IMG/VR virus record: IMGVR_UViG_3300037722_000745 | Coordinates: 96,001-160,000 of that record | DNA length: 64,000 nt | Strand: one strand, 5' to 3' | Source of the DNA: a virus | Lineage: Duplodnaviria; Caudoviricetes | Part shown: piece after piece, positions 22,799-62,242 of the stretch | Layout: each line of letters starts with the position of its first letter | Numbering within the stretch: the first letter of the stretch is position 1 | Made by a program: the position numbers and the translations under genes | Notes under the pieces: model-generated | Told to the model about the DNA's origin: nothing | The model's database searches: none | What the model saw: the letters and a program-made list of their open reading frames with translations, nothing else

Positions 22799-23659
22799 AT
22801 GGACCTGAACGTCCGAATCGAAAAGGGCCTTCCGCCCCTGGTGGAGGGGGCGGTGTCCTTTGAGACAGGCGCGACCCGGGAACAGCTCGCCGATCCCAGC
22901 CAGATCGCTTACGAGCACCACGGGCCCGAATTCAGCCCTCTGGAAAGGGGAGCGTTACCCGCTTTCTTCGAGGATTTGCTACTCGGGCGTCCTATGCCAC
23001 TCGTGTTCGCTACACCACAAATCCAAGATGTGGACACCCTAGTAGCCATTTCCTTGTTCCTACACCGAGACCTTGCCACGCATCCCGCTATGCCAGGGTT
23101 CGTTTACCTCACCGACTTTGTCCACCGACTTGGACTACCAGCTTTAGCTCATATTGACGAGGATCTGGCCCGATTCTTTTCCGCATTGCGAACCTATTTG
23201 CCTGACGAAGGTCTGTCGCAAAGAGACCTGAGTAATCGAATCCAACACGCGGTCAGCTGGACCCGGAAATACATCCATGAGGGGAGCGTTTCCTTGCTTG
23301 GATCCGCCCAGGTAAGCAGTGTCCAAGTGTTGGATCAGGGGACCTCAGGGTTCGTGGTGGCTCAATGCCAGGGCCCTCTGCTCGACGGATGGGTGGAACT
23401 CTACCGCCTGGGATTCCTTCGGGGCATCCTCGTCAGCTCGGCACAACAGAATGACAGGCGCCATGTTCTCATCGCCCGCAAGAGCGTCTATGTGCTGTTC
23501 GACCTGAAAGCAGCCGGCCGAATCCTGAACCAAATGGAATCGGCTATGGGCGAACTTCCAGACTGGACCGTAGACCCCAACGGACTTTGGCTCAAGAGCC
23601 CCAGAGATGGGACTCTCATCCTCCTCCAAGACACCACCCAGATCCTGATTCGAATTTAA
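22799..23659 (+). CDS. DHH-phosphoesterase-like protein (divergent)
   Basis: 286 aa. YEHHG and QDVDTLVA resemble DHH-fold metal-binding motifs. First gene of the only plus-strand unit. Confidence 0.45.
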   Translation: MDLNVRIEKGLPPLVEGAVSFETGATREQLADPSQIAYEHHGPEFSPLERGALPAFFEDLLLGRPMPLVFATPQIQDVDTLVAISLFLHRDLATHPAMPGFVYLTDFVHRLGLPALAHIDEDLARFFSALRTYLPDEGLSQRDLSNRIQHAVSWTRKYIHEGSVSLLGSAQVSSVQVLDQGTSGFVVAQCQGPLLDGWVELYRLGFLRGILVSSAQQNDRRHVLIARKSVYVLFDLKAAGRILNQMESAMGELPDWTVDPNGLWLKSPRDGTLILLQDTTQILIRI

Positions 23660-23660
23660 T

Positions 23661-24008
23661 ATGACTCAGCTTCCCAAACTTGTTCGCGACCGCCTTCCAA
23701 TGAAACTGGCCTTCCTGGAGATCAGGCACAGCGCTCGCATCGAAACAGGCGACCGTCTATATGCCTCCCATCTACGAGCCAAACTCCGCGAGAAGGTCGA
23801 CGAGTTCCTCGAATCTGAGTCAGTTGAAGAGCTGGCTGACATCCTCGAAGTCCTCGATGCCCTAGCCCTGTACCATAGGATCGACCCACGGGAGATCCAA
23901 CGAGTCAAACAGCGGAAGTACGATCAATACGGAGGTTTCTCCGGCCGCGTAGTGCTTCTAGAAGTCGACAACAACACCCCTACCCCACCTCCTAAGGGAA
24001 GTACGTAG
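23661..24008 (+). CDS. MazG-like nucleoside triphosphate pyrophosphohydrolase (all-alpha)
   Basis: 115 aa. KLVRDRLP...KLREKVDEFLES..EELADILEVLDAL matches the MazG/HisE-like house-cleaning NTP pyrophosphatase pattern. Confidence 0.8.
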   Translation: MTQLPKLVRDRLPMKLAFLEIRHSARIETGDRLYASHLRAKLREKVDEFLESESVEELADILEVLDALALYHRIDPREIQRVKQRKYDQYGGFSGRVVLLEVDNNTPTPPPKGST

Positions 24009-24213
24009 GTCTCTTGGAGGTTTTCGAGAGCCTCAGTGGTGTGTTATCCTCGGGGGTCTCTCGCATTCTGCGGGTTCCTTGAAAATTCAATAGGTTAGAT
24101 GGATCCGGATCCCGATCGGCTTCTGGATCCAAGGGTCCCCAACTCATGATCCCACAGGGGGTCTCCCAAACCGCCTTGTGAATCCCTGAATTCACACGGT
24201 TTCTCAGACTCCC
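24009..24213 (+). promoter_or_regulatory. Probable CRISPR leader
   Basis: Non-coding; contains an AT-rich core (ttgaaaattcaataggtta) and two gggggtctc motifs; abuts the 5' end of repeats that end in ATTGAAAC. Confidence 0.55.
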
Positions 24214-25201
24214 CCTGAGGGAGGTACCCGCCTCCCTCGTAATTGAAACAGAGCGGCGTGGACCCATCCGGACTGCATTCTCACTCCCTGAGGGAGGTAC
24301 CCGCCTCCCTCGTAATTGAAACCACAGGACGTTGGGCGGAATCCCCGCCTCCCTCGTAATTGAAACCTCAGGTAAGCTACATGCGGAGAAGGCGCCCTGA
24401 GGGAGGTGAAAGCCTCCCTCGTAATTGAAACACGCCGTAATCCCCGAGTACGTGCAGCTTGGTTTCGCACCTGAGGGAGGTGAAAGCCTCACTCGTAATT
24501 TGAAACCAGCGGAACGACGGTCCAGAAGGCGCAAAAGGTGATCCCTGAGGGAGGTGAAAGCCTCCCTCGTAATTGAAACGAAACCGGACGCCCCGCCGGT
24601 TACGCCGCCTGCTCAAGCTCAGCAATCGCCTGTGGCGCGACGACCCTGAGGGAGGTGAAAGCCTCCCTCGTAATTGAAACGATGAGCTCGGAGCGCAGCC
24701 GGGCGGCATCGCGCGCGATCCTGAGGGAGGTGAAAGCCTCCCTCGTAATTGAAACGTGGATCAACTCTCTCAGGGTCATAGATCGGGTGTCTCCCTGAGG
24801 GAGGTGAAAGCCTCCCTCGTAATTGAAACGCCAACGCAGATACTCTGATGTCGAGATCGGTGATCTCCCTGAGGGAGGTGAAAGCCTCCCTCGTAATTGA
24901 AACGCTGGGCTGGTTACGGAGCCCGACCGTGACGAGCACTGCCTGAGGGAGGTGAAAGCCTCCCTCGTAATTGAAACGCGGCAGCGTAGCCGTACGCTCC
25001 CATGACCCCGTCACCCTGAGGGAGGTGAAAGCCTCCCTCGTAATTGAAACCTTGAATGGGCCCGCGACAACCATCCCTCGCTTGTCGTCCTGAGGGAGGT
25101 GAAAGCCTCCCTCGTAATTGAAACGCAATAGGGGTGGGGTCAGCGTATAGACGTGATCATGGTGTCCTGAGGGAGGTGAAAGCCTCCCTCGTAATTGAAA
25201 C
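24214..25201 (+). CRISPR. CRISPR array, 14 repeats / 13 spacers, class 1-type repeat, no cas gene in window
   Basis: 36-bp repeat CCTGAGGGAGGTGAAAGCCTCCCTCGTAATTGAAAC (8-bp stem GAGGGAGG/CCTCCCTC, 3' ATTGAAAC). Starts at 24214, 24287, 24344 (partial), 24396, 24470, 24544, 24645, 24720, 24794, 24868, 24942, 25015, 25089, 25166. Spacer lengths 37, 21, 29, 38, 37, 65, 39, 38, 38, 38, 37, 38, 41. Confidence 0.97.
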
Positions 25202-25745
25202 GCTCTCGAATCTCGGCCAACGCCCTAACGTGCTCCTCGTCCCCAGCTCGAACCATGTGGTGGGTGAGAGCCTGGTACCCAACACACCCTGCATCGCAAA
25301 CGGGACACCAGTGATCCGCCCCACGAGCGACGGCACGCTCACGAAGCTGCTCAGGCGTCACCCGTTTTTGCCCCTTCCGGCTAAGGCCAACCTTTGTGCC
25401 CGCCGCGGAATGGAACCTCTTGGACCGCGCATCAAAAGCCTCCTGGCCAAATTCCGCGACCCACAAGCTCCTCAAGGTATTGGGGCTCATGCCAAAACTA
25501 GCCGACACCTTCTTGAATGCCTGCTCGGTGTGGAATGCCGCAAGGATATCCGCACGAGAAGCTGTCGATCGCTTAGGGTCGTTGCGATCCCGGATCTCCG
25601 CAAAGCGCTCCTCGCCCAAACGATCTAACAACACCGGTTTGATCGTGTTGACGCTCCCCCCAAGACGCCTGGACAAGGCTTTCAACGACTCCCCACCCAA
25701 GAAGCCTTCAAGGGCCTGCCCATAGGTCCACTTCCGCTTAGACAT
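25140..25745 (-). pseudogene. Tandem-HTH plus C2H2-like Zn-finger gene truncated by the CRISPR array (probable homing endonuclease remnant)
   Basis: Two HTH-like repeats, then CPVC...HH...H. The frame enters repeat 14 (reading RFNYEGGFHLPQ) and stops inside spacer 13. Confidence 0.65.
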
Positions 25746-25862: not shown

Positions 25863-28800
25863 TTAGATTCTAGCCCGAAGATTGAAAGTAAGGACAATAT
25901 ACAAAAGAGGAAAAATTGGAGCATAGAACATTTCGAAGTTCAGGATAGTGGGGTCGTCTGGGTCTATCTCTGCCGTCATGCCAGTGAAGGCCCCGACGAT
26001 CTCAGCCTGAACTAACGAACGGAAAAGCCCGGTCATCGATACGACAACTTCATTGGTCCGGCTCGCAAGGAACTTGGTGCCAATGTATGAATCCAAAATT
26101 GATCGACTCTGCTGATGGACAAAGTCCGCAATCTGGACAACCGTCGGTAGACGTGTGAGAACGTTGGCCATGTTTGTCGTCAGACCCTGTCGGATACGGA
26201 TGATGGGATCCAAATCCTCCAAGAGGGTGACACCAGCGACAGCCGTCTGATTGGCCTCCACCGGATCTAGGATCCTTGGGATCCTGGTGAACCCCTGAAT
26301 CCTGCGACGAGTGTAAGGAGTCGCCACGTCAACAGCCGGCGAAACTACGGCTCCAGCAACCGCCGCCCCGAAGAAGCTGCCGTCGATGAGCTGTTCAAAG
26401 TTCTGCCCCAACTCGTCAGTCAGAGTGATGACCGAAGAGTCTGGGTACAGAGCCACGATGCGACTAGAGTTCAAACCTCGAGCCACAGCCTGCACAGCCG
26501 TAGGAATCGTACCTGACGCGAACCCAACGAACCCAATACGCTCCGCCTGGTTGCGGATATTCGATTGAATTTCGCAGTGGTTGGTCAGGTGTGTGTAGAC
26601 CGCGGTGTCAGTCGCCAGCGGCACGATGATGTCCGGGCGGATGTTGCCTGGCAGCGGTGTCGCCAGCTCGTCGATCGCCTCATTGAACGCCTGGGCCGAA
26701 GCCTGATTGGTGTTAGGGATCTTGAGCACCTGCTTGATGATGATCAGGACGGCACCGTTCAGGATCGCCAGGTACCCTCCCAGAGAAGCTCGGTTTTCCG
26801 CCGAGGTCCCTCCGAAGTTGGCCTCGATCGTCTTGAGCTGCTGGAAGATCCTCGGCGAGTAGTCCTGCTTTTGGTATCGGTAGGTGATGAAGTAGAAGTC
26901 CCCGACAGACGGTTCAACTCCGTCCGGATTGTAGGTCGTCAGATCCGCCGTATCGTTGACGCCGACCCCCACAGTATTCGAAACCAGTAGCTCCAAGCCC
27001 CCGATCGAGTATCGAGGCACACTCGGCGACACATGGAAGGTCTCCTGCGCCTCCAAGGTGAACGAACCCGCCGGGTCGTAGCTGCCCGTGCTGGCTGGAA
27101 GCACCGTGAAACGCAACCCGGTTGTGGCATCAGTATACGTTTGCCCTGGGACGCCCGTACCCGATGACCCCGTGCCAGCGGTAGAGGTCACAGTGAAGAA
27201 GTCCGAGGGATCTTCCCCGACGTCACCATCCGTACCTGGTGTGATGTCGACACCCGTAGAGGGGTGGAACGCTGAGTTCACTGCGTTAGCAAATCCAATG
27301 CTAGACGTAGCCGCCCCCGTCGAGAGCGAAACGAACGTGATGTAGTCCGAGCCGCTCACGGTATCAACATAAGCCACGGCCCCAGCGGCGAAACCAACCG
27401 TCGCCATGAGAGAACTCACAACTTCCTGAGCCTCAACAAGAGTCTGGCTGGCAAACTGGTTCTGGGTGAATCCCAGCACGTCGTTCGCAGACCCGGCCCC
27501 GATCAAAATGGCAGAGTTGGCGTCATTCGTCGCGCTTGTTAGCCGGATCTTGTCCAAGTTGGCCCCAGTGCCCACTGAAGCTACGCTGCCCGGAATCACT
27601 CCGTTGATGTCAGCAGCGACCGTAACCGCCGTTACAGCCGCTCCTGCGGTCAGCGTGACCGTGTATTCGACCCCGTTCACGGTCGCAACGAGAATGTCAT
27701 TGAGACCCGCCGTGATATTGAAATCCCCGACCAGGGTGCCCAACAACGTAGCAGGCTTGTTGATAGACCCCGTCGTCCCCTCGACGCTCGCAAACGTCTG
27801 GAAGCCGAGCGTACCCTCCGCCGTGCCTTGGTTGATCGTGACGTTGGAGACATCATCGAAACCTCCAGGCAGAGCGCCTGGAACTTCCAAACCACGGATG
27901 ATGAAGTAGACATCCCCTGTAGCCCCACCGACCTGAGAGAAACTAGCCAGGTTGTTAGGAGCCGTGCCAATGAAAGCCGCATCAGCGTCGATAACGGCAT
28001 TGATCTCGGCTACAATAGCTGTTGGAGTCTGGGTGCCAGAGGTCAGGCTGATCGTAGCGAGGTCAACACCGTCGATGGTGATGTTCAGATCGTTGTCCGG
28101 AGCCGGATCGATCGTGATGTCACCTGCGTCGACACCTGTTTGGATCGGCGTGACAGGGCCACTCACGAGCACAGCCGGAGCCGCCGCCGCCAGGTTGGTG
28201 ACCTGGTTCACGGCGTCCACCACGGTCGTCCAAGTCGCCGAGAACGGCGAGTAGAACGAATAGGGTGCAGCGCCCTTGATAGTGTAGACCGCGTTGGTCG
28301 CCACGCTCTGATCGAACGTCACGGTCACGACCTCGGACACAGGGGCCCCAGAACCCGAGTGAAAGGCGTCCGGAATCAGCTCCGAGCCTCTCGGCCACTG
28401 GACAATCTGACTCAGACCTGTCTTGGACCCAAATCGAGTCTCGTAGAGGTTCGCATCCTGGGTGGTTGAGAAGACCTTGTACTGGCCGGTCCCTACCGGG
28501 CCAGGGACCGTGTTGGTGAGGATGTACGTGTCATCCGCAAGGCGGCTGTAGTAGAACGTTGCGTAAGCGTTGTAGCCAGGAGGCTGGGCGTCCTGCAGTA
28601 CGATGCGACGGTTCACACCGTCCACCACTTCCACAGGTACGGCAGGTCGATTCAACGCGTCTCGCAGTGTACGACCCGTGTATACCTGGATCAGATCTGG
28701 TCGATTCGTGAGTAGCGCTTGACGGCTGTTGGCTACCGAGTTGAAGGTTGTCAAGCCCAGCGTGGTGCTACGACCGTTACCCGTGGTGGGCACCTCCGGT

Positions 28801-30155
28801 AGCAGGAAGTCTGTGCTCGAGACCGTTGCCGGGATGGTGCTGGTATCGGTGACTCGGACGCACTCCGCCAAATACAAACGCTCATCAATAAGCGTACCAA
28901 CCACCTGCCCCCCGGCCCCTGTCGAACCATCGAAAGGCGTAGCCCCTGGGGTAGTCGTGCCGGGGGCCACCTGGAAGCTAGATCCCCAGTTAATGACCGA
29001 CACATCCGTGCTCGGGTTCGAAACGACAAAGTCCGTGCCTTGGATGAAGTCATTGCGGCCAGGTGAGATACCAGCGCGGAGAACCGTTGTCACCAGACTG
29101 TTGGGCAGGTAATCGAAGGTATCCTGCCATGTGTTGGCCCAGTACTGTACTGTTACCGTAGCTCCAGGAGCGGGCGCAAAGGGCAGTGTCACGATCCCGT
29201 TCGTGCCGTCCACTTGTTGCACGACGACCTGAGTTCCGTCGACCTTCGCCACCACCTTGGACGTGTCCGTAGTGGTGGTGCCGCCTCCCGTACCGTCCAC
29301 AATGGGCCGTTGGAACACACGGAAGTCACGGTTGCGATTAGACGACGCACCCGCAGTGAAACCCAACGGGCCGTTCGCAGTGCCTTCTCCGATGGTCAGA
29401 CCCACCGGGGTCGTGAACTGGATGTGATCCAAACCTTGGTTATCAGTTGACACCGAAGTCGACAGGTTGGACACCGAGGCGGCATTGATGGTCGAAACCA
29501 CCGTAGTAGCAGACAACGAACCCGCAGGAAGCGTGATCGTGGCCACCGTACCATTGACGTTGATGACGAACTGATCATTGCTGCCCGCTACGATTTCGAA
29601 CGGAGCATACCCAGGAGAGGTTAGAGACGCGTTCGTCTCAGTAACCTGATCCGATAGATCATCAGTGAACGAGGTGTCGCCCCTATGGAAAAAGTACGTG
29701 ACCCGGACGTCGTCCGTAGCTTGTGTGGGAACCTGAAGCGTGACAAGCCCGCTCGAACCTTGGATCGAGCCCACAGCCACCGGAGTCCCATTCGCAGTAA
29801 CAGTCACCGACCGAACGTCATTCGTGGTCAAGCCAAACCCTTGACCATCCACAATGGGGTAGTTCCGAACTCGGAACTGAGTCAGAGTGCCGTCTTGGAC
29901 CCCAAGGATCAGGTTGTTGGCGTTAGAGTCATCCACAACCCAGCTCTCGGACACGTCCTCGTTGACGATCCGCTGATCCACAGTTGAGGATGACCCGCGA
30001 ACGATCTCAAAGTCGTTCTGCTCCAGCTCTTCCTGACCGACGCCAATCAGAGCTGGGATCCTAAGCCCCGCCACCAAATTGCTGGCGTTTGTCTCAGTCA
30101 GGGTACGGGTGTAGACGCCAGGGGGAGCGTATGAAATAAAGGGGCCTAGGGCCAT
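25863..30155 (-). CDS. Contractile tail sheath protein with multiple inserted domains
   Basis: 1430 aa. N-terminal APPGVYTRTL; C-terminal sheath core (AAVAGAV...PYTRRRIQGF...QTAVAGVTLLE...IRIRQGLTT...APIFPLLYIVLTFNL). Confidence 0.92.
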   Translation of the reverse strand: MALGPFISYAPPGVYTRTLTETNASNLVAGLRIPALIGVGQEELEQNDFEIVRGSSSTVDQRIVNEDVSESWVVDDSNANNLILGVQDGTLTQFRVRNYPIVDGQGFGLTTNDVRSVTVTANGTPVAVGSIQGSSGLVTLQVPTQATDDVRVTYFFHRGDTSFTDDLSDQVTETNASLTSPGYAPFEIVAGSNDQFVINVNGTVATITLPAGSLSATTVVSTINAASVSNLSTSVSTDNQGLDHIQFTTPVGLTIGEGTANGPLGFTAGASSNRNRDFRVFQRPIVDGTGGGTTTTDTSKVVAKVDGTQVVVQQVDGTNGIVTLPFAPAPGATVTVQYWANTWQDTFDYLPNSLVTTVLRAGISPGRNDFIQGTDFVVSNPSTDVSVINWGSSFQVAPGTTTPGATPFDGSTGAGGQVVGTLIDERLYLAECVRVTDTSTIPATVSSTDFLLPEVPTTGNGRSTTLGLTTFNSVANSRQALLTNRPDLIQVYTGRTLRDALNRPAVPVEVVDGVNRRIVLQDAQPPGYNAYATFYYSRLADDTYILTNTVPGPVGTGQYKVFSTTQDANLYETRFGSKTGLSQIVQWPRGSELIPDAFHSGSGAPVSEVVTVTFDQSVATNAVYTIKGAAPYSFYSPFSATWTTVVDAVNQVTNLAAAAPAVLVSGPVTPIQTGVDAGDITIDPAPDNDLNITIDGVDLATISLTSGTQTPTAIVAEINAVIDADAAFIGTAPNNLASFSQVGGATGDVYFIIRGLEVPGALPGGFDDVSNVTINQGTAEGTLGFQTFASVEGTTGSINKPATLLGTLVGDFNITAGLNDILVATVNGVEYTVTLTAGAAVTAVTVAADINGVIPGSVASVGTGANLDKIRLTSATNDANSAILIGAGSANDVLGFTQNQFASQTLVEAQEVVSSLMATVGFAAGAVAYVDTVSGSDYITFVSLSTGAATSSIGFANAVNSAFHPSTGVDITPGTDGDVGEDPSDFFTVTSTAGTGSSGTGVPGQTYTDATTGLRFTVLPASTGSYDPAGSFTLEAQETFHVSPSVPRYSIGGLELLVSNTVGVGVNDTADLTTYNPDGVEPSVGDFYFITYRYQKQDYSPRIFQQLKTIEANFGGTSAENRASLGGYLAILNGAVLIIIKQVLKIPNTNQASAQAFNEAIDELATPLPGNIRPDIIVPLATDTAVYTHLTNHCEIQSNIRNQAERIGFVGFASGTIPTAVQAVARGLNSSRIVALYPDSSVITLTDELGQNFEQLIDGSFFGAAVAGAVVSPAVDVATPYTRRRIQGFTRIPRILDPVEANQTAVAGVTLLEDLDPIIRIRQGLTTNMANVLTRLPTVVQIADFVHQQSRSILDSYIGTKFLASRTNEVVVSMTGLFRSLVQAEIVGAFTGMTAEIDPDDPTILNFEMFYAPIFPLLYIVLTFNLRARI

Positions 30156-31945: not shown

Positions 31946-32980
31946 TCACTCCGCGTGTTCTTCCGTGGCTAGAATCAAAAGACCATCAGCTACCGCGGTC
32001 ATAGGGTTCGCAGCAGCTCGAATCTCACTGATCTCAATTGGAAACCCGCGCTTCTTGACGGACTCAAACTCATCCTTGAAGACTTCGAGGAAGCCTCCCG
32101 CCCGACTGGTGCCGCCAGAGATTACAAACGGCACTGGATCCGGAAGGTCTACTGTGGACTGGACCTTCCGAAATTGAACCGCAATGTTGTCCAAACAGTA
32201 CTTGATCAAAGCACGGATGTAGAGGGCGATAGCTTCTTCGTCCCGGTTCTTGGGATCCGCAAGGTTCACACCCTTCTCTTTGACCGCACACATCCGAGAA
32301 GCCGTCGAACCGGTTGCCTTAGCCGCATGCGTGTCGACCCAGTCCCCTCCCCGAGCCAGACTGAAATCCATACCCATCATCGCTTGGTACGCCAATGCGA
32401 TGTTACACATACCCGAACCGAAGCTGACTGCCAAACCAGAGAAACTCTCGTCCGCACACTGACTGTAGATGATCGCCATCGCCTCGTTCATTGGGTGGGG
32501 TGTGTACCCTAACTCCGACAAAATCTTTCGGAACACCTCAGTGTGATAGATGATGTCTTGGGTCTCGTCGTCGATAGGTGAGGCTGGGACACTGTAGAAG
32601 CAGTGCTCGCCCGTCGAAACGGGCTCTCCGATCACGTTGCCGATCAGCAGGCTCAAAATCTGTTGAGCGTCAAGCTCACCAGCGGAAATGACGCCGCGAC
32701 TGAGTGGGCGACGCACCTCCCGCTTGAAGAGATTAGCCATGTTGAGAGCTGAGTCGCCTAGGACGATGAGGTTGCCCTCATGCTCCACATAATCGACCTT
32801 GGACAAACGAAGAGTCTTCTTTGCCTCGGGATCGAGGTCGAGGAAGGCATCTCGAATCCGCTTGGTTTCAACCTTATCACTAGACGCCCACAACCGTCGA
32901 GCTGCGACAAGATTCATGGTGCCAACGTCGAGGCCCACAGCAGGGTTGTACTGACCTACATCTTCATCTTTTTTACTCAT
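31946..32980 (-). CDS. Actin-like ATPase (MamK/MreB/FtsA fold)
   Basis: 344 aa with phosphate-1 (GLDVGTMN), connect-1 (NEAMA), phosphate-2 (SFGSGMCN) and adenosine (ISGGTS) motifs. Confidence 0.85.
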   Translation of the reverse strand: MSKKDEDVGQYNPAVGLDVGTMNLVAARRLWASSDKVETKRIRDAFLDLDPEAKKTLRLSKVDYVEHEGNLIVLGDSALNMANLFKREVRRPLSRGVISAGELDAQQILSLLIGNVIGEPVSTGEHCFYSVPASPIDDETQDIIYHTEVFRKILSELGYTPHPMNEAMAIIYSQCADESFSGLAVSFGSGMCNIALAYQAMMGMDFSLARGGDWVDTHAAKATGSTASRMCAVKEKGVNLADPKNRDEEAIALYIRALIKYCLDNIAVQFRKVQSTVDLPDPVPFVISGGTSRAGGFLEVFKDEFESVKKRGFPIEISEIRAAANPMTAVADGLLILATEEHAE

Positions 32981-33001: not shown

Positions 33002-33931
33002 CTACAACCCTGTGCGGTCGTAGCTATACTCCAGCTTCCCGCCCCGTTGCTGAAGCAGGTAGAGGAACTCTTCGTGCTTGTCGGCGGCACCTTGGATTAG
33101 GTTGTCAGTGCCATCGGAAAGCTCACCACGCGCCTCAAGAGACTTACGGGCCTCTCCGATGCAATGGACCACACATCGCTCCACGTTAAGACTGGCCTCG
33201 ACCATACCCTCTGCTCCCAGCACACCAGGAGTCCCGCACCACAGCTGGATCAAAAAGCCCATGGACGAGATCTGTAGAGATGGGCTCACGAGCACTGCGT
33301 GCCCCGATCCTACCGCCCGTTCCGCCACCTGATCGATGAAGGTCTGAGAGTCCTCATAGATCCGCATGAACAGCAAGTGGTCTCCATAAAAATGGCCCCC
33401 TCGTGTCTGCCAATGGTGGCTCTGGTGGACGTGAGAAGCCGCACGCAAAATCGCCAGCAAGGCCCCCAACTCAGACATTGGGACCCCCTCGAATCTTTGG
33501 ACAAGCCCACTAAAGACCCCTCCGAATGATTCATGGGCCTCTTTCATCTGACCTTTCTCCGGAAGATATGGGGGGCCGTTGGTCTGACCATCAAAAGTCA
33601 GAGGATCGACCCAGATCGCGTGTATGGAATCCGCTGGCATTCTTACCTTCCAAGGATCCACCGAAGCCGTCTTGTCCCCACCATCCTCTCGCAGATCTTT
33701 CCCAACTTGCGATGGTGTGTGCTTCGTGGGCCGAGCCGTAAAGGTCTTCCCAGAGTAGGGGGACTTGATCGTGAGAACGCGCTCTTCCAAGTAGAAAACG
33801 CCCCCGTCTGGGTCAGTGTACTTCCACAGAAATGCCTGAGCCGCTGTCTTGGGTCGTTCAGAGGGCTTACCCGAGATCTGTTCGACGGTCCGAATGGCGT
33901 GGGTTAGGAGATTGGCTTGACGTGGGTGCAT
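33002..33931 (-). CDS. Dps/ferritin-like protein with an extra N-terminal domain
   Basis: C-terminal HWQTRGGHFYGDHLLFMRIYEDSQTFIDQVAER matches the Dps ferroxidase signature. Start uncertain (33931 or 33967). Confidence 0.8.
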   Translation of the reverse strand: MHPRQANLLTHAIRTVEQISGKPSERPKTAAQAFLWKYTDPDGGVFYLEERVLTIKSPYSGKTFTARPTKHTPSQVGKDLREDGGDKTASVDPWKVRMPADSIHAIWVDPLTFDGQTNGPPYLPEKGQMKEAHESFGGVFSGLVQRFEGVPMSELGALLAILRAASHVHQSHHWQTRGGHFYGDHLLFMRIYEDSQTFIDQVAERAVGSGHAVLVSPSLQISSMGFLIQLWCGTPGVLGAEGMVEASLNVERCVVHCIGEARKSLEARGELSDGTDNLIQGAADKHEEFLYLLQQRGGKLEYSYDRTGL

Positions 33932-33964
33932 GTCGAAGGGTGATCCTTTCCACGGTAGCCATAT

Positions 33965-33977
33965 CAAGAAAGCTTTA
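33965..33977 (-). promoter_or_regulatory. Putative late promoter variant TAAAGCTTTCTTG
   Basis: 10/13 identical to the 63623 copy; lies upstream of the Dps-like gene. Confidence 0.35.
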
Positions 33978-60705: not shown

Positions 60706-61587
60706 TCACACCCGGGTGATGACAATACGGGTCAAACCACGCGGGTTGAACGCGCCAATGCCCAGGTTCTCGAAGCACGAGAAGCCGATGGTGCGAGCCT
60801 TCGGGTCATCCGCCGACAAGACGGTGACTTCCGTCCTAACGGGGATGCGGCCGAACTGCTCGGGTTCGCAGCACACGTACGAGAAGCCGGTCGGAACGAG
60901 CCTGGACGTGATGATCTGGGCGCCCCACAGAACGGCCTGGAGGCCGGTCTTGAGCAGGGTGGCCTGACTCTCGATGTCCAAGATATCACGACCGAACTTG
61001 CGGATGTCCGCGTAGTCCGTAGCGTTCATGTAGATGCGGGCGACACGAAGGTCGTGACGCTCGATCGCCGCAAACGCATCAGCCAGGACCGCAGGCGACA
61101 CCGGAGCGACCACCGGAACGTCCGGGTTGGTCTGGCCCGGCAGCGTGTCGAAACCCGAGACAGCGATGCTGTCCAAGATCGCGAACACACGCTCATCCTC
61201 CGCTGCCTGGATCTGCGCCTTCGCCAGATCTTGAGCACGCTCGATCAGATCGAAACGACGATCCTTAATCTGAGTGAGAGGGATCTCCGGGTTCGAGGCG
61301 ATCTCGAACAAGGGGAAGATCACGCGCCGAGGCTTCTGGATGGCAAGAATGTTCTCGCCTTCCTCGCCCACGACGTAGGCCGTGACATCCGGATCCTTGT
61401 CGTAGATCGGCAATGCTCCGTCCGGAAGCTGCTCGACGAGGAAGGTCTTACGACCAACCGACGAGTAGTCCCGCCGAAGACGCAGGGGTTGGATCATCGA
61501 AGCTGCGAGCTTCGCACGTCCAGCGGCCGTCTTGATATACTCCGAGATGACCTGCTGCTTTGTGGCGTTTGAGACTTGGTTACCCAT
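60706..61587 (-). CDS. Major capsid protein (HK97-like fold)
   Basis: 293 aa; strong codon bias; order scaffold - decoration - capsid - terminator; capsid-like FEIASNPEI and RIPVRTEVTV segments. Confidence 0.8.
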   Translation of the reverse strand: MGNQVSNATKQQVISEYIKTAAGRAKLAASMIQPLRLRRDYSSVGRKTFLVEQLPDGALPIYDKDPDVTAYVVGEEGENILAIQKPRRVIFPLFEIASNPEIPLTQIKDRRFDLIERAQDLAKAQIQAAEDERVFAILDSIAVSGFDTLPGQTNPDVPVVAPVSPAVLADAFAAIERHDLRVARIYMNATDYADIRKFGRDILDIESQATLLKTGLQAVLWGAQIITSRLVPTGFSYVCCEPEQFGRIPVRTEVTVLSADDPKARTIGFSCFENLGIGAFNPRGLTRIVITRV

Positions 61588-61615
61588 GGTTCTCTGCTCC
61601 TATTGTCCGAAGTCC

Positions 61616-62242
61616 TCAGACCCTAAGGTCCAACACGAGGAGCGAAGAATTGGCGTCTGGAGCAACCTTAACAATGCCCATGATGGTATTGTTCTCGATC
61701 CCAGCCGCAACCTGGGTCTCGTAGCTGTCCGCGAGTACGTTGGTGAGCAAACCGTTCTGAGAAGCGTACAGTTTGTCACCAGCCGCGTAAGTCAGGGCAT
61801 TCCCGGCGCCACCGCCGATCAGCACCTGTGTCTCGTAGACTGAGACACCAACACACGAGCCGCTCCCGCAGACGTATGGACCGCGTCCCGAAGCCACACC
61901 TGGCGTGTTCTCGAAGGGGTTACCCAAAGCGTCGTTGAGAAACAACCCGAGAGGTCGACAGCCAGCGACAAAGCCAGCCGAGTTGGGGCCACCGATGTAG
62001 TTGTTGCCAACATCGGGCCTGGTGAACGCTACGGTACCACCAAGGACACCTACCTTGATGACGCCCGAAAGCGTGGTGGAGACGGTGTTGGCTACGGTGA
62101 CGATCGGGGGATTGCTCTGTGTGAATGCATCCGCCGTCAGAATACCCACTGAGTTGCGGGTCACGACGTAGAGAGGTTGCAAACGTCCAGAAGTCTCCCG
62201 AAAATCACCCGAGCTTTGACCGCCGATGGCGAAACTAGTCAT
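61616..62242 (-). CDS. Capsid decoration/cement protein
   Basis: 208 aa, Gly-rich beta protein between the scaffold and capsid genes. Confidence 0.55.
   Translation of the reverse strand: MTSFAIGGQSSGDFRETSGRLQPLYVVTRNSVGILTADAFTQSNPPIVTVANTVSTTLSGVIKVGVLGGTVAFTRPDVGNNYIGGPNSAGFVAGCRPLGLFLNDALGNPFENTPGVASGRGPYVCGSGSCVGVSVYETQVLIGGGAGNALTYAAGDKLYASQNGLLTNVLADSYETQVAAGIENNTIMGIVKVAPDANSSLLVLDLRV

Follow-up and report, generated by a model that had tools for sequence, protein, structure and literature searches.

A leader-preceded CRISPR array of a huge phage shares leader and repeat design with a Cas3-less type I-C variant

A genuine CRISPR array of an uncultured huge phage is probably, though by no means certainly, one of several (at least four or five) dispersed guide-RNA modules for the phage's own type I-C variant complex, which works without Cas3 and whose genes would lie in the unassembled part of the genome. 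The array was found at positions 24214-25201 of a DNA stretch of 64,000 nucleotides, here called the window, which comprises bases 96001-160000 of a single linear IMG/VR virus contig. With 323,174 bp at a CheckV completeness of 68%, the contig agrees with the initial annotation of this DNA, made from the letters alone, as belonging to a huge phage. Judged by sequence, the leader and the repeat of the window array belong to the huge-phage type I-C variant which has been known since 2020 (PMC7162821). Al-Shayeb et al. 2020 (Nature 578:425, PMC7162821) described related huge phages with a type I-C variant lacking Cas1 and Cas2, in which a helicase replaces Cas3 and a Cas5 protein closest to Cas5d stands in for Cas6, together with CasPhi. 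The system type is already known and the arrays of this phage are a further case; added here are the homology of the leader to those of cas-linked arrays, the co-occurrence of arrays and operon among relatives, read-level evidence for an unassembled array and leader, and the anatomy of the insertion.

Anatomy of the array, its repeat and its leader

The array lies on the plus strand within exactly the limits first noted. Unit-by-unit placement yielded 13 full repeats and one 3' half repeat, together with 13 unique spacers, and so bears out the earlier count of 14 repeats and 13 spacers. Twelve of the 13 full repeats are 36 nt long and have the form CCTGAGGGAGG-loop-CCTCCCTCGTAATTGAAAC; they start at 24214, 24287, 24396, 24544, 24645, 24720, 24794, 24868, 24942, 25015, 25089 and 25166. 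The remaining full repeat (24470-24506) differs by a substitution and by an additional T, which brings it to 37 nt, and the half repeat (24344-24366) has a TACCCG-type loop remnant. The loop TACCCG is found in repeats 1 and 2 and in the half repeat, the loop TGAAAG in all remaining units, and perfect copies of either repeat variant make up 11 of the 14 units. Most units follow each other with a period of 73-77 nt. Ten spacers measure 37-41 nt and one 65 nt, and spacers of 21 and 29 nt stand on either side of the half repeat. The general hallmarks of a CRISPR array, namely several nearly identical direct repeats 23-55 nt long, unique spacers of comparable length between them and an upstream leader, are all present. 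Several spacers were correctly described before as very GC-rich: the spacer at 24681-24719 has a GC content of 74%, and four spacers range from 68 to 74% compared with 56% genome-wide. The 21-nt spacer, the half repeat and the 29-nt spacer together form a scar within the array (24323-24395, plus strand), which marks the boundary between the block of TACCCG loops and the block of TGAAAG loops and presumably originated by recombination. A search of Rfam over 23900-25400 gave no family match, CRISPR-DR families included.

Folding of the repeat RNA revealed a hairpin with an 8-bp Watson-Crick stem, or with 10 bp when two G-U pairs closing a GAAA loop are counted, followed by GUAAUUGAAAC. The fold energy is -18.4 kcal/mol (z = -6.65) and was equalled by none of 200 shuffled sequences. 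With eight Watson-Crick pairs the unpaired 3' tail is the 11-nt GUAAUUGAAAC, as the initial annotation had read it, and the full layout consists of a 3-nt overhang, an 8-bp stem, a 6-nt loop and an 11-nt overhang ending in AUUGAAAC. This stem is maintained in 47 distinct variants of the repeat from this phage and a related phage, G001: 90% of the stem cells are paired, compared with 58-71% in shifted-register controls, and changes on both sides were observed in 43 stem cells against 18.7 +/- 3.9 in shuffles, none of 500 of which reached 43.

A hairpin with an 11-nt single-stranded tail ending in AUUGAAAC is the design of type I-C repeats. [quoted passage not shown] The predicted geometry of the window repeat matches this class, so that the previous assignment of the repeat to class 1 systems stands and can be stated more precisely as a type I-C design. 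Canonical bacterial type I-C systems (Dvulg; B. halodurans, S. mutans and D. vulgaris; PMC8524198) share with the window array the hairpin with its 3' overhang, the expected cut at the 3' stem base and spacers of 35-41 nt. They differ in the length of the repeat, which is 32 nt there and 36 nt here with the longer stem and loop, and in the first bases of the handle, which are GUA in the window repeat.

Directly 5' of the array lies a leader of 196 nt (24018-24213, plus strand), recognised by its identity to the leaders of sister arrays in the same genome and by boxes in common with cas-linked leaders. Its motifs are an inverted repeat CGAGAG..CTCTCG, a conserved box GTTCCTTGAAAATTCAATAGGTTA (about 24074-24097) and a further box CTCCCAAACC. 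The leader is 93% identical to that at genome position 64401 and 90% identical to that at 61138, and hence three arrays of the genome possess near-identical leaders; a partial leader copy lies at genome 286 kb. A simple scan found no sigma-70 consensus promoter in the leader.

Insertion site and further arrays of the contig

The array is located where a plus-strand gene pair converges on minus-strand structural genes. The pair (22799-24008) encodes proteins of 286 and 115 aa. On the opposite side, a minus-strand gene (25140-25745) encodes a 201-aa Zn-ribbon-like protein whose last ~20 codons are antisense to repeat 14 and the end of spacer 13; its tail, ..FNYEGGFHLPQ.., is the reverse-complement reading of the repeat. 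The protein is 58% identical to its G001 homologue over residues 6-181, and this homology stops at window position 25203. As the leader begins 10 nt after the stop of the 115-aa gene and the last repeat lies two bases from the conserved part of the 201-aa protein, the module fills the gap at the convergent junction exactly. Five related huge-phage contigs keep the flanking genes, and all five have other DNA and no array at the site downstream of the 286-aa gene. The absence of the array from this site in five relatives marks the module as a recent insertion specific to this lineage. A possible identity of the 201-aa protein with TniQ was dismissed as noise, the match having an E value of only 1e-4.

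The downstream neighbour of the 201-aa gene encodes a conserved large protein of 1430 aa (25863-30155, minus strand), which is 75% identical to its G001 homologue, shows a weak DUF2460 match and is probably a virion or tail protein. Comparison of the 201-aa and 1430-aa proteins with the products of genes flanking the sister arrays showed that they are not paralogues. In the wider surroundings, the minus strand carries large, conserved genes whose products show domains resembling those of tail fibres or head decoration proteins, an endolysin domain and weak matches to DUF2460. The array had been placed within a virion gene block, which is plausible in view of these structural-like domains, although the annotation is weak. 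The conserved structural block also comprises a gene for a 344-aa protein (31946-32980, minus strand) which matches the Pfam family Volactin (PF25216) over its full length with an E value of 6.5e-74 and is 71% identical to its G001 copy. Volactin is an actin-like family described in haloarchaea. The adjoining gene (33002-33967, minus strand) encodes a 321-aa protein with a C-terminal ferritin-like (Dps-type) domain.

Three sister arrays with the window repeat type were found in the contig at genome positions 1-257, where the contig begins inside the array, 61334-61884 and 64598-65526, and solo copies of the repeat are scattered elsewhere in it. The array at 64598-65526 shows the same two loop variants in blocks, and two of its spacers are duplicated (S2=S4 and S3=S7). 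The arrays at 61 and 64 kb stand on both sides of a plus-strand gene (genome 61939-64380; L004:10939-13380) for an 813-aa lipoprotein-like protein with a signal peptide, a lipobox, many Cys-rich repeats and a C-terminal propeller-like part, 39% identical to its G001 homologue. This protein was considered as a hidden effector and rejected, as it is a Cys-rich repeat lipoprotein with no match in Pfam or PADLOC. An array with a different repeat (seven repeats, genome 217701-218179) adjoins the gene of a 718-aa Cas12-type protein with a Cas12 TNB/RuvC match at its C-terminus; we regard this protein tentatively as Cas12j-like. An array of a third repeat type (four units, genome 243755-244009) has no adjacent cas gene. 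At the 3' end of the contig (genome 322996-323174) a sequence is repeated in tandem about every 52 nt, and both contig ends are assembly breaks at repeats, the start lying inside the CRISPR array.

Three near-identical leaders, loop variants arranged in blocks, the duplicated spacers of the 64-kb array and the half-repeat scar point to copying and recombination between modules and not to acquisition by Cas1-Cas2. Since no Cas1 was found, it seems that duplications, deletions and recombination, more than the usual uptake of new spacers, alter the arrays.

The type I-C variant operon of relatives and the unassembled sequence

When IMG/VR was scanned for pairs of the 11-nt handle spaced as in an array, one huge-phage record was found, G001, which is complete at 411,618 bp with direct terminal repeats. 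Matches to G001 were found for 176 of the 390 ORFs of the present phage, mostly collinear and with 50-80% amino-acid identity. In G001, an operon encodes Cas5c, Cas8c and Cas7c, then a ResIII-type helicase of 771 aa and a protein of 256 aa. Behind it come a leader and an array of ~62 repeats, each 36 nt long, which have the stem design of the window repeat and an identical handle GTAATTGAAAC. The window leader aligns over its full length, motifs included, with this cas-linked leader. The G001 array (188.9-193.7 kb, L049, minus strand) comprises 55 distinct sequences among 64 candidate units, and its repeat stems vary in a compensating way with the handle being fixed. Solo repeat copies are scattered over G001 as well, and no Cas1 was found in it.

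By protein search the same operon (Cas5d-Csd1-Cas7-ResIII helicase, followed by genes for a ~245-aa and a ~72-aa protein) was detected in further contigs, namely a JGI contig of 453 kb, a contig from Logan, two from a single ENA sample and two more from JGI. This leader and repeat design stands 3' of a Cas5c-Cas8c-Cas7c-helicase operon in at least four independent lineages of contigs, G001 included, and a 36-nt hairpin repeat ending in ATTGAAA(C/T) is present wherever the sequence extends past the operon. The 453-kb contig (L103) shows the operon followed by a 36-nt array. The contigs L114, L115 and L116 have in common with the window the leader boxes, which are arranged between operon and array in the order inverted CGAG..CTCG, GTTCTTTGACAATTCAATA, CTCGCAAACC. 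Two other relatives, G002 (398 kb, complete) and G005 (416 kb, 87%), contain neither Cas7 nor arrays with the window handle. Arrays and operon thus occur together in the few genomes available. A further 363-kb relative, in whose assembled 76% no Cas7 was found, has one pair of ATTGAAAC-ending units at array spacing (G004:C1:186903-186984, L113), which may form a mini-array of a different repeat.

By their handle, stem design and leader boxes, which recur in G001, L114, L115 and L116, the window leader and repeat are of the kind that follows a Cas5-Cas8c-Cas7-helicase operon without Cas1 and Cas2. A CasPhi/Cas12j-type effector, the other feature of the published phages, is represented in the same phage by the 718-aa Cas12-type protein, of tentative subtype, beside its seven-repeat array. 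Common to the present case and the published variant (PMC7162821, Extended Data Fig. 9) are a Cas12j-like gene with its own array, a repeat in I-C style, the lack of Cas1 and, in G001, the operon of Cas5, Cas8c and Cas7 with a helicase in the place of Cas3. They differ in that one array beside the cas genes was described there, whereas here at least four leader-array modules are dispersed over the genome, two of them inside structural gene blocks, and the operon is not assembled. Compared with canonical type I-C systems, the operons of the relatives appear to lack Cas3, Cas2 and Cas4, as well as Cas1, which was searched for separately, and instead encode the ResIII helicase and a protein with a predicted methyltransferase fold.

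The latter, the ~245-aa protein, is always encoded directly after the helicase (L039:44-814, minus strand, in G001; L114:9033-9758, L115:1108-1836 and L116:7632-8369), and the ~72-aa gene always follows it. It has no sequence match in Pfam or the PDB. A confident structure model (pLDDT 82, pTM 0.84) was compared with the PDB, and the 50 best fold matches listed all belong to the class I SAM-dependent methyltransferases or share their fold, though with low TM-scores of 0.28-0.43. The constant partner of the helicase is consequently predicted, on the model, to be a methyltransferase-fold protein.

The initial annotation reported no cas gene in the window, and this holds for the families tested. 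It also proposed a scan of the remaining genome: six-frame searches of the whole 323 kb revealed no match to Cas6, Cas5d, Cas7, Csd1 (Cas8c) or Cas1, and tblastn with 15 operon proteins from three lineages produced nothing better than E 0.09. The set of Cas5c, Cas8c and Cas7c that defines a type I-C system was accordingly not found in the 323 kb, of a record which is 68% complete and begins within a sister array. As to the accompanying module of Cas3 and Cas1/Cas2/Cas4, Cas1 is absent from both the contig and G001 by our searches, and in the operons of relatives the ResIII helicase replaces Cas3. Searches of 5.8 billion proteins with Cas7c of G001, its 256-aa partner and a profile of this partner retrieved other lineages only, with no copy assignable to the lineage of this phage. 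No public contig joining the exact repeat to cas genes was found in IMG/VR or JGI metagenomes, searches from which records of this very genome were possibly left out.

The previous description as an orphan array is consequently correct in that no cas gene of these families lies nearby or in the 323 kb. It is not secure for the genome, as most of the operon-bearing accessory region is missing from the contig. The collinear core of the contig, at about 10-285 kb, corresponds to 284-411 kb and 1-120 kb of G001, which places both contig ends in the accessory region; in G001 this region extends from 120 to 284 kb, with the operon at 194-201 kb. About 48 kb of the accessory region are assembled in the present contig. 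Since collinearity between the two phages is poor in their accessory regions, the exact position of the operon is not predictable.

Read data supplied evidence for more sequence of the same kind. The array flanks recur, identical in every base, in contigs from four runs of sediment and soil, which carry four study codes (sediment 2020, soil 2025) and possibly represent one campaign per year; within the array itself the contigs of the runs are broken into fragments. In three of these runs (X1-X3) another variant of the leader forms the end of a contig of 2,191 nt, and its depth tracks that of the phage (6.8 vs 8.2, 22.4 vs 20.4 and 45.4 vs 49.3, respectively). The 30 nt upstream of this extra leader occur nowhere in the 323 kb and were not found in IMG/VR. 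In addition, about nine more sequences adjoining repeats of the window type (type A) or the leader are missing from the contig, and most of them read as extra spacers. On the simplest reading, the array truncated by the contig start extends further upstream, to a leader of its own and on into sequence that is not assembled. We therefore lean towards the presence of a cas operon in this phage. A cognate operon elsewhere in its genome, which the initial annotation had named as the finding that would speak against an orphan array, is likely.

Proposed function and alternative readings

For the preferred reading, that the window array is a module of the phage's own I-C variant, we infer the following course of events. 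Each module would be transcribed from its own conserved leader, and a Cas5c-type endonuclease would cut the repeat at the 3' base of the hairpin, giving a crRNA with the 11-nt 5' handle GUAAUUGAAAC, a guide of ~37 nt and a 25-nt 3' hairpin ending in ..GAGGGAGGUGAAAGCCUCCCUC. Cas7c and Cas8c would assemble on this guide RNA to form a Cascade complex able to find matching DNA; the ResIII-type helicase would take the place of Cas3, with the small putative methyltransferase-fold protein encoded beside it. The operon genes would be located in the third of the genome that is not assembled, probably on the upstream side of the sister array cut at the contig start, and their proteins would act in trans on the window array. 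Type IV-A systems with their DinG helicase may be the nearest functional analogy, being likewise class 1 complexes on mobile elements with a helicase in the place of a nuclease and no adaptation module. The analogy would be functional only, since the Cas proteins (Csf instead of Cas5c, Cas7c and Cas8c), the helicase family and the Cas6-type processing are different.

Searches for targets of the window array, for which the initial annotation had suggested competing elements or host genes, gave no significant match of its spacers to the phage itself or G001, to G002-G005 (best E 0.098) or to 50,697 GenBank phage records. The same was true for three spacers compared with IMG/VR with N at every sixth base, and for one GC-rich spacer compared with JGI metagenomes.

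The initial annotation favoured an orphan array whose crRNAs are loaded into class 1 Cas proteins of the host, and this is unlikely. In that case the phage would provide only the guides and borrow Cas5c, Cas7, Cas8c and Cas3 of a host type I-C system. Phages with host-like repeats were described by Al-Shayeb et al. (PMC7162821), the handle ends in the same eight nucleotides, AUUGAAAC, as canonical bacterial I-C repeats do, the 323 kb lack cas genes of this type, and the GC content of several spacers is far above that of the phage, as would be expected for a high-GC host or its elements. Against this, the leader and repeat are homologous to those which follow phage-borne operons in the syntenic G001 and at least three other contig lineages, and the contig from which the cas genes are missing is incomplete. 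Cas5c enzymes recognise the nucleotides right after the cut, for which UGG was given in the case of B. halodurans Cas5c (PMC8524198), whereas GUA is found here. The repeat was also expected to reveal the host. Exact-pattern searches of 185,579 species-representative genomes (GTDB) returned no match to it, and the exact repeat was equally missing from IMG/VR and JGI metagenomes, where records of this genome were possibly left out. Bacterial arrays sharing the handle alone are mostly cyanobacterial and have unrelated stems; the repeat therefore names no host. A repeat close to that of a bacterial host, which characterises host-dependent cas-less arrays, was thus not found among species representatives searched by exact patterns. 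The window array resembles such arrays, as well as viral mini-arrays and solitary repeat units, in lying far from cas genes with solo repeats elsewhere in the genome. Mini-arrays and solitary units have one or two spacers or a lone repeat and no leader; here there are 13 spacers and a long conserved leader, and no host genome with the repeat was found.

A quite improbable alternative is that the arrays and solo repeats act as RNA decoys in the manner of RNA anti-CRISPRs, or provide guides for the I-C variant complex of a related, co-infecting phage. The solo repeats scattered over this genome and G001 would suit it, as would the fact that some relatives have the operon and others lack it. In the 61-kb sister array, one spacer agrees in 29 of 29 nt with a gene of the phage itself (genome 60221-60249), which would fit a conflict between close relatives. 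On the other hand, 13 spacers and a conserved 196-nt leader in three near-identical copies exceed what a decoy needs, the spacers have no match in five relatives, and the extra leader whose depth follows that of the phage indicates more of the same system in this genome. Least probable is a decaying relic, copied in by recombination and now unused: the half repeat, two truncated spacers, one fused spacer of 65 nt, one mutated repeat, the overrun of the neighbouring gene's 3' end, the lack of Cas1 and of any spacer target found agree with decay, but most units are perfect copies, the leader is 90-93% identical to its sister copies and the flanks are identical in four runs.

If the array indeed belongs to the phage's own I-C variant complex, one can speculate that leader-array modules are copy-and-paste cassettes spread through late structural operons, which would program a nuclease-free class 1 complex of Cascade, ResIII helicase and methyltransferase-fold protein. 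Such a complex might silence or modify its target instead of degrading it in the way of Cas3, and the supply of guides would be tied to late transcription. This proposal, which we consider improbable as a whole, draws on the copies of the cassette, on what the operon contains in relatives and on the methyltransferase-like fold obtained from the model.

The present analysis corrects an attractive but probably wrong reading, in which an orphan array borrows Cas proteins of the host and thereby reveals it; an incomplete contig can create the impression of an orphan array. It also suggests that in huge phages several leader-array modules at scattered positions can supply the Cas3-less I-C variant, and that these modules evolve through recombination in the absence of Cas1. 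The constant partners in the operon, the ResIII helicase and the predicted methyltransferase-fold protein, are a candidate route by which the variant may exert its effect on targets.
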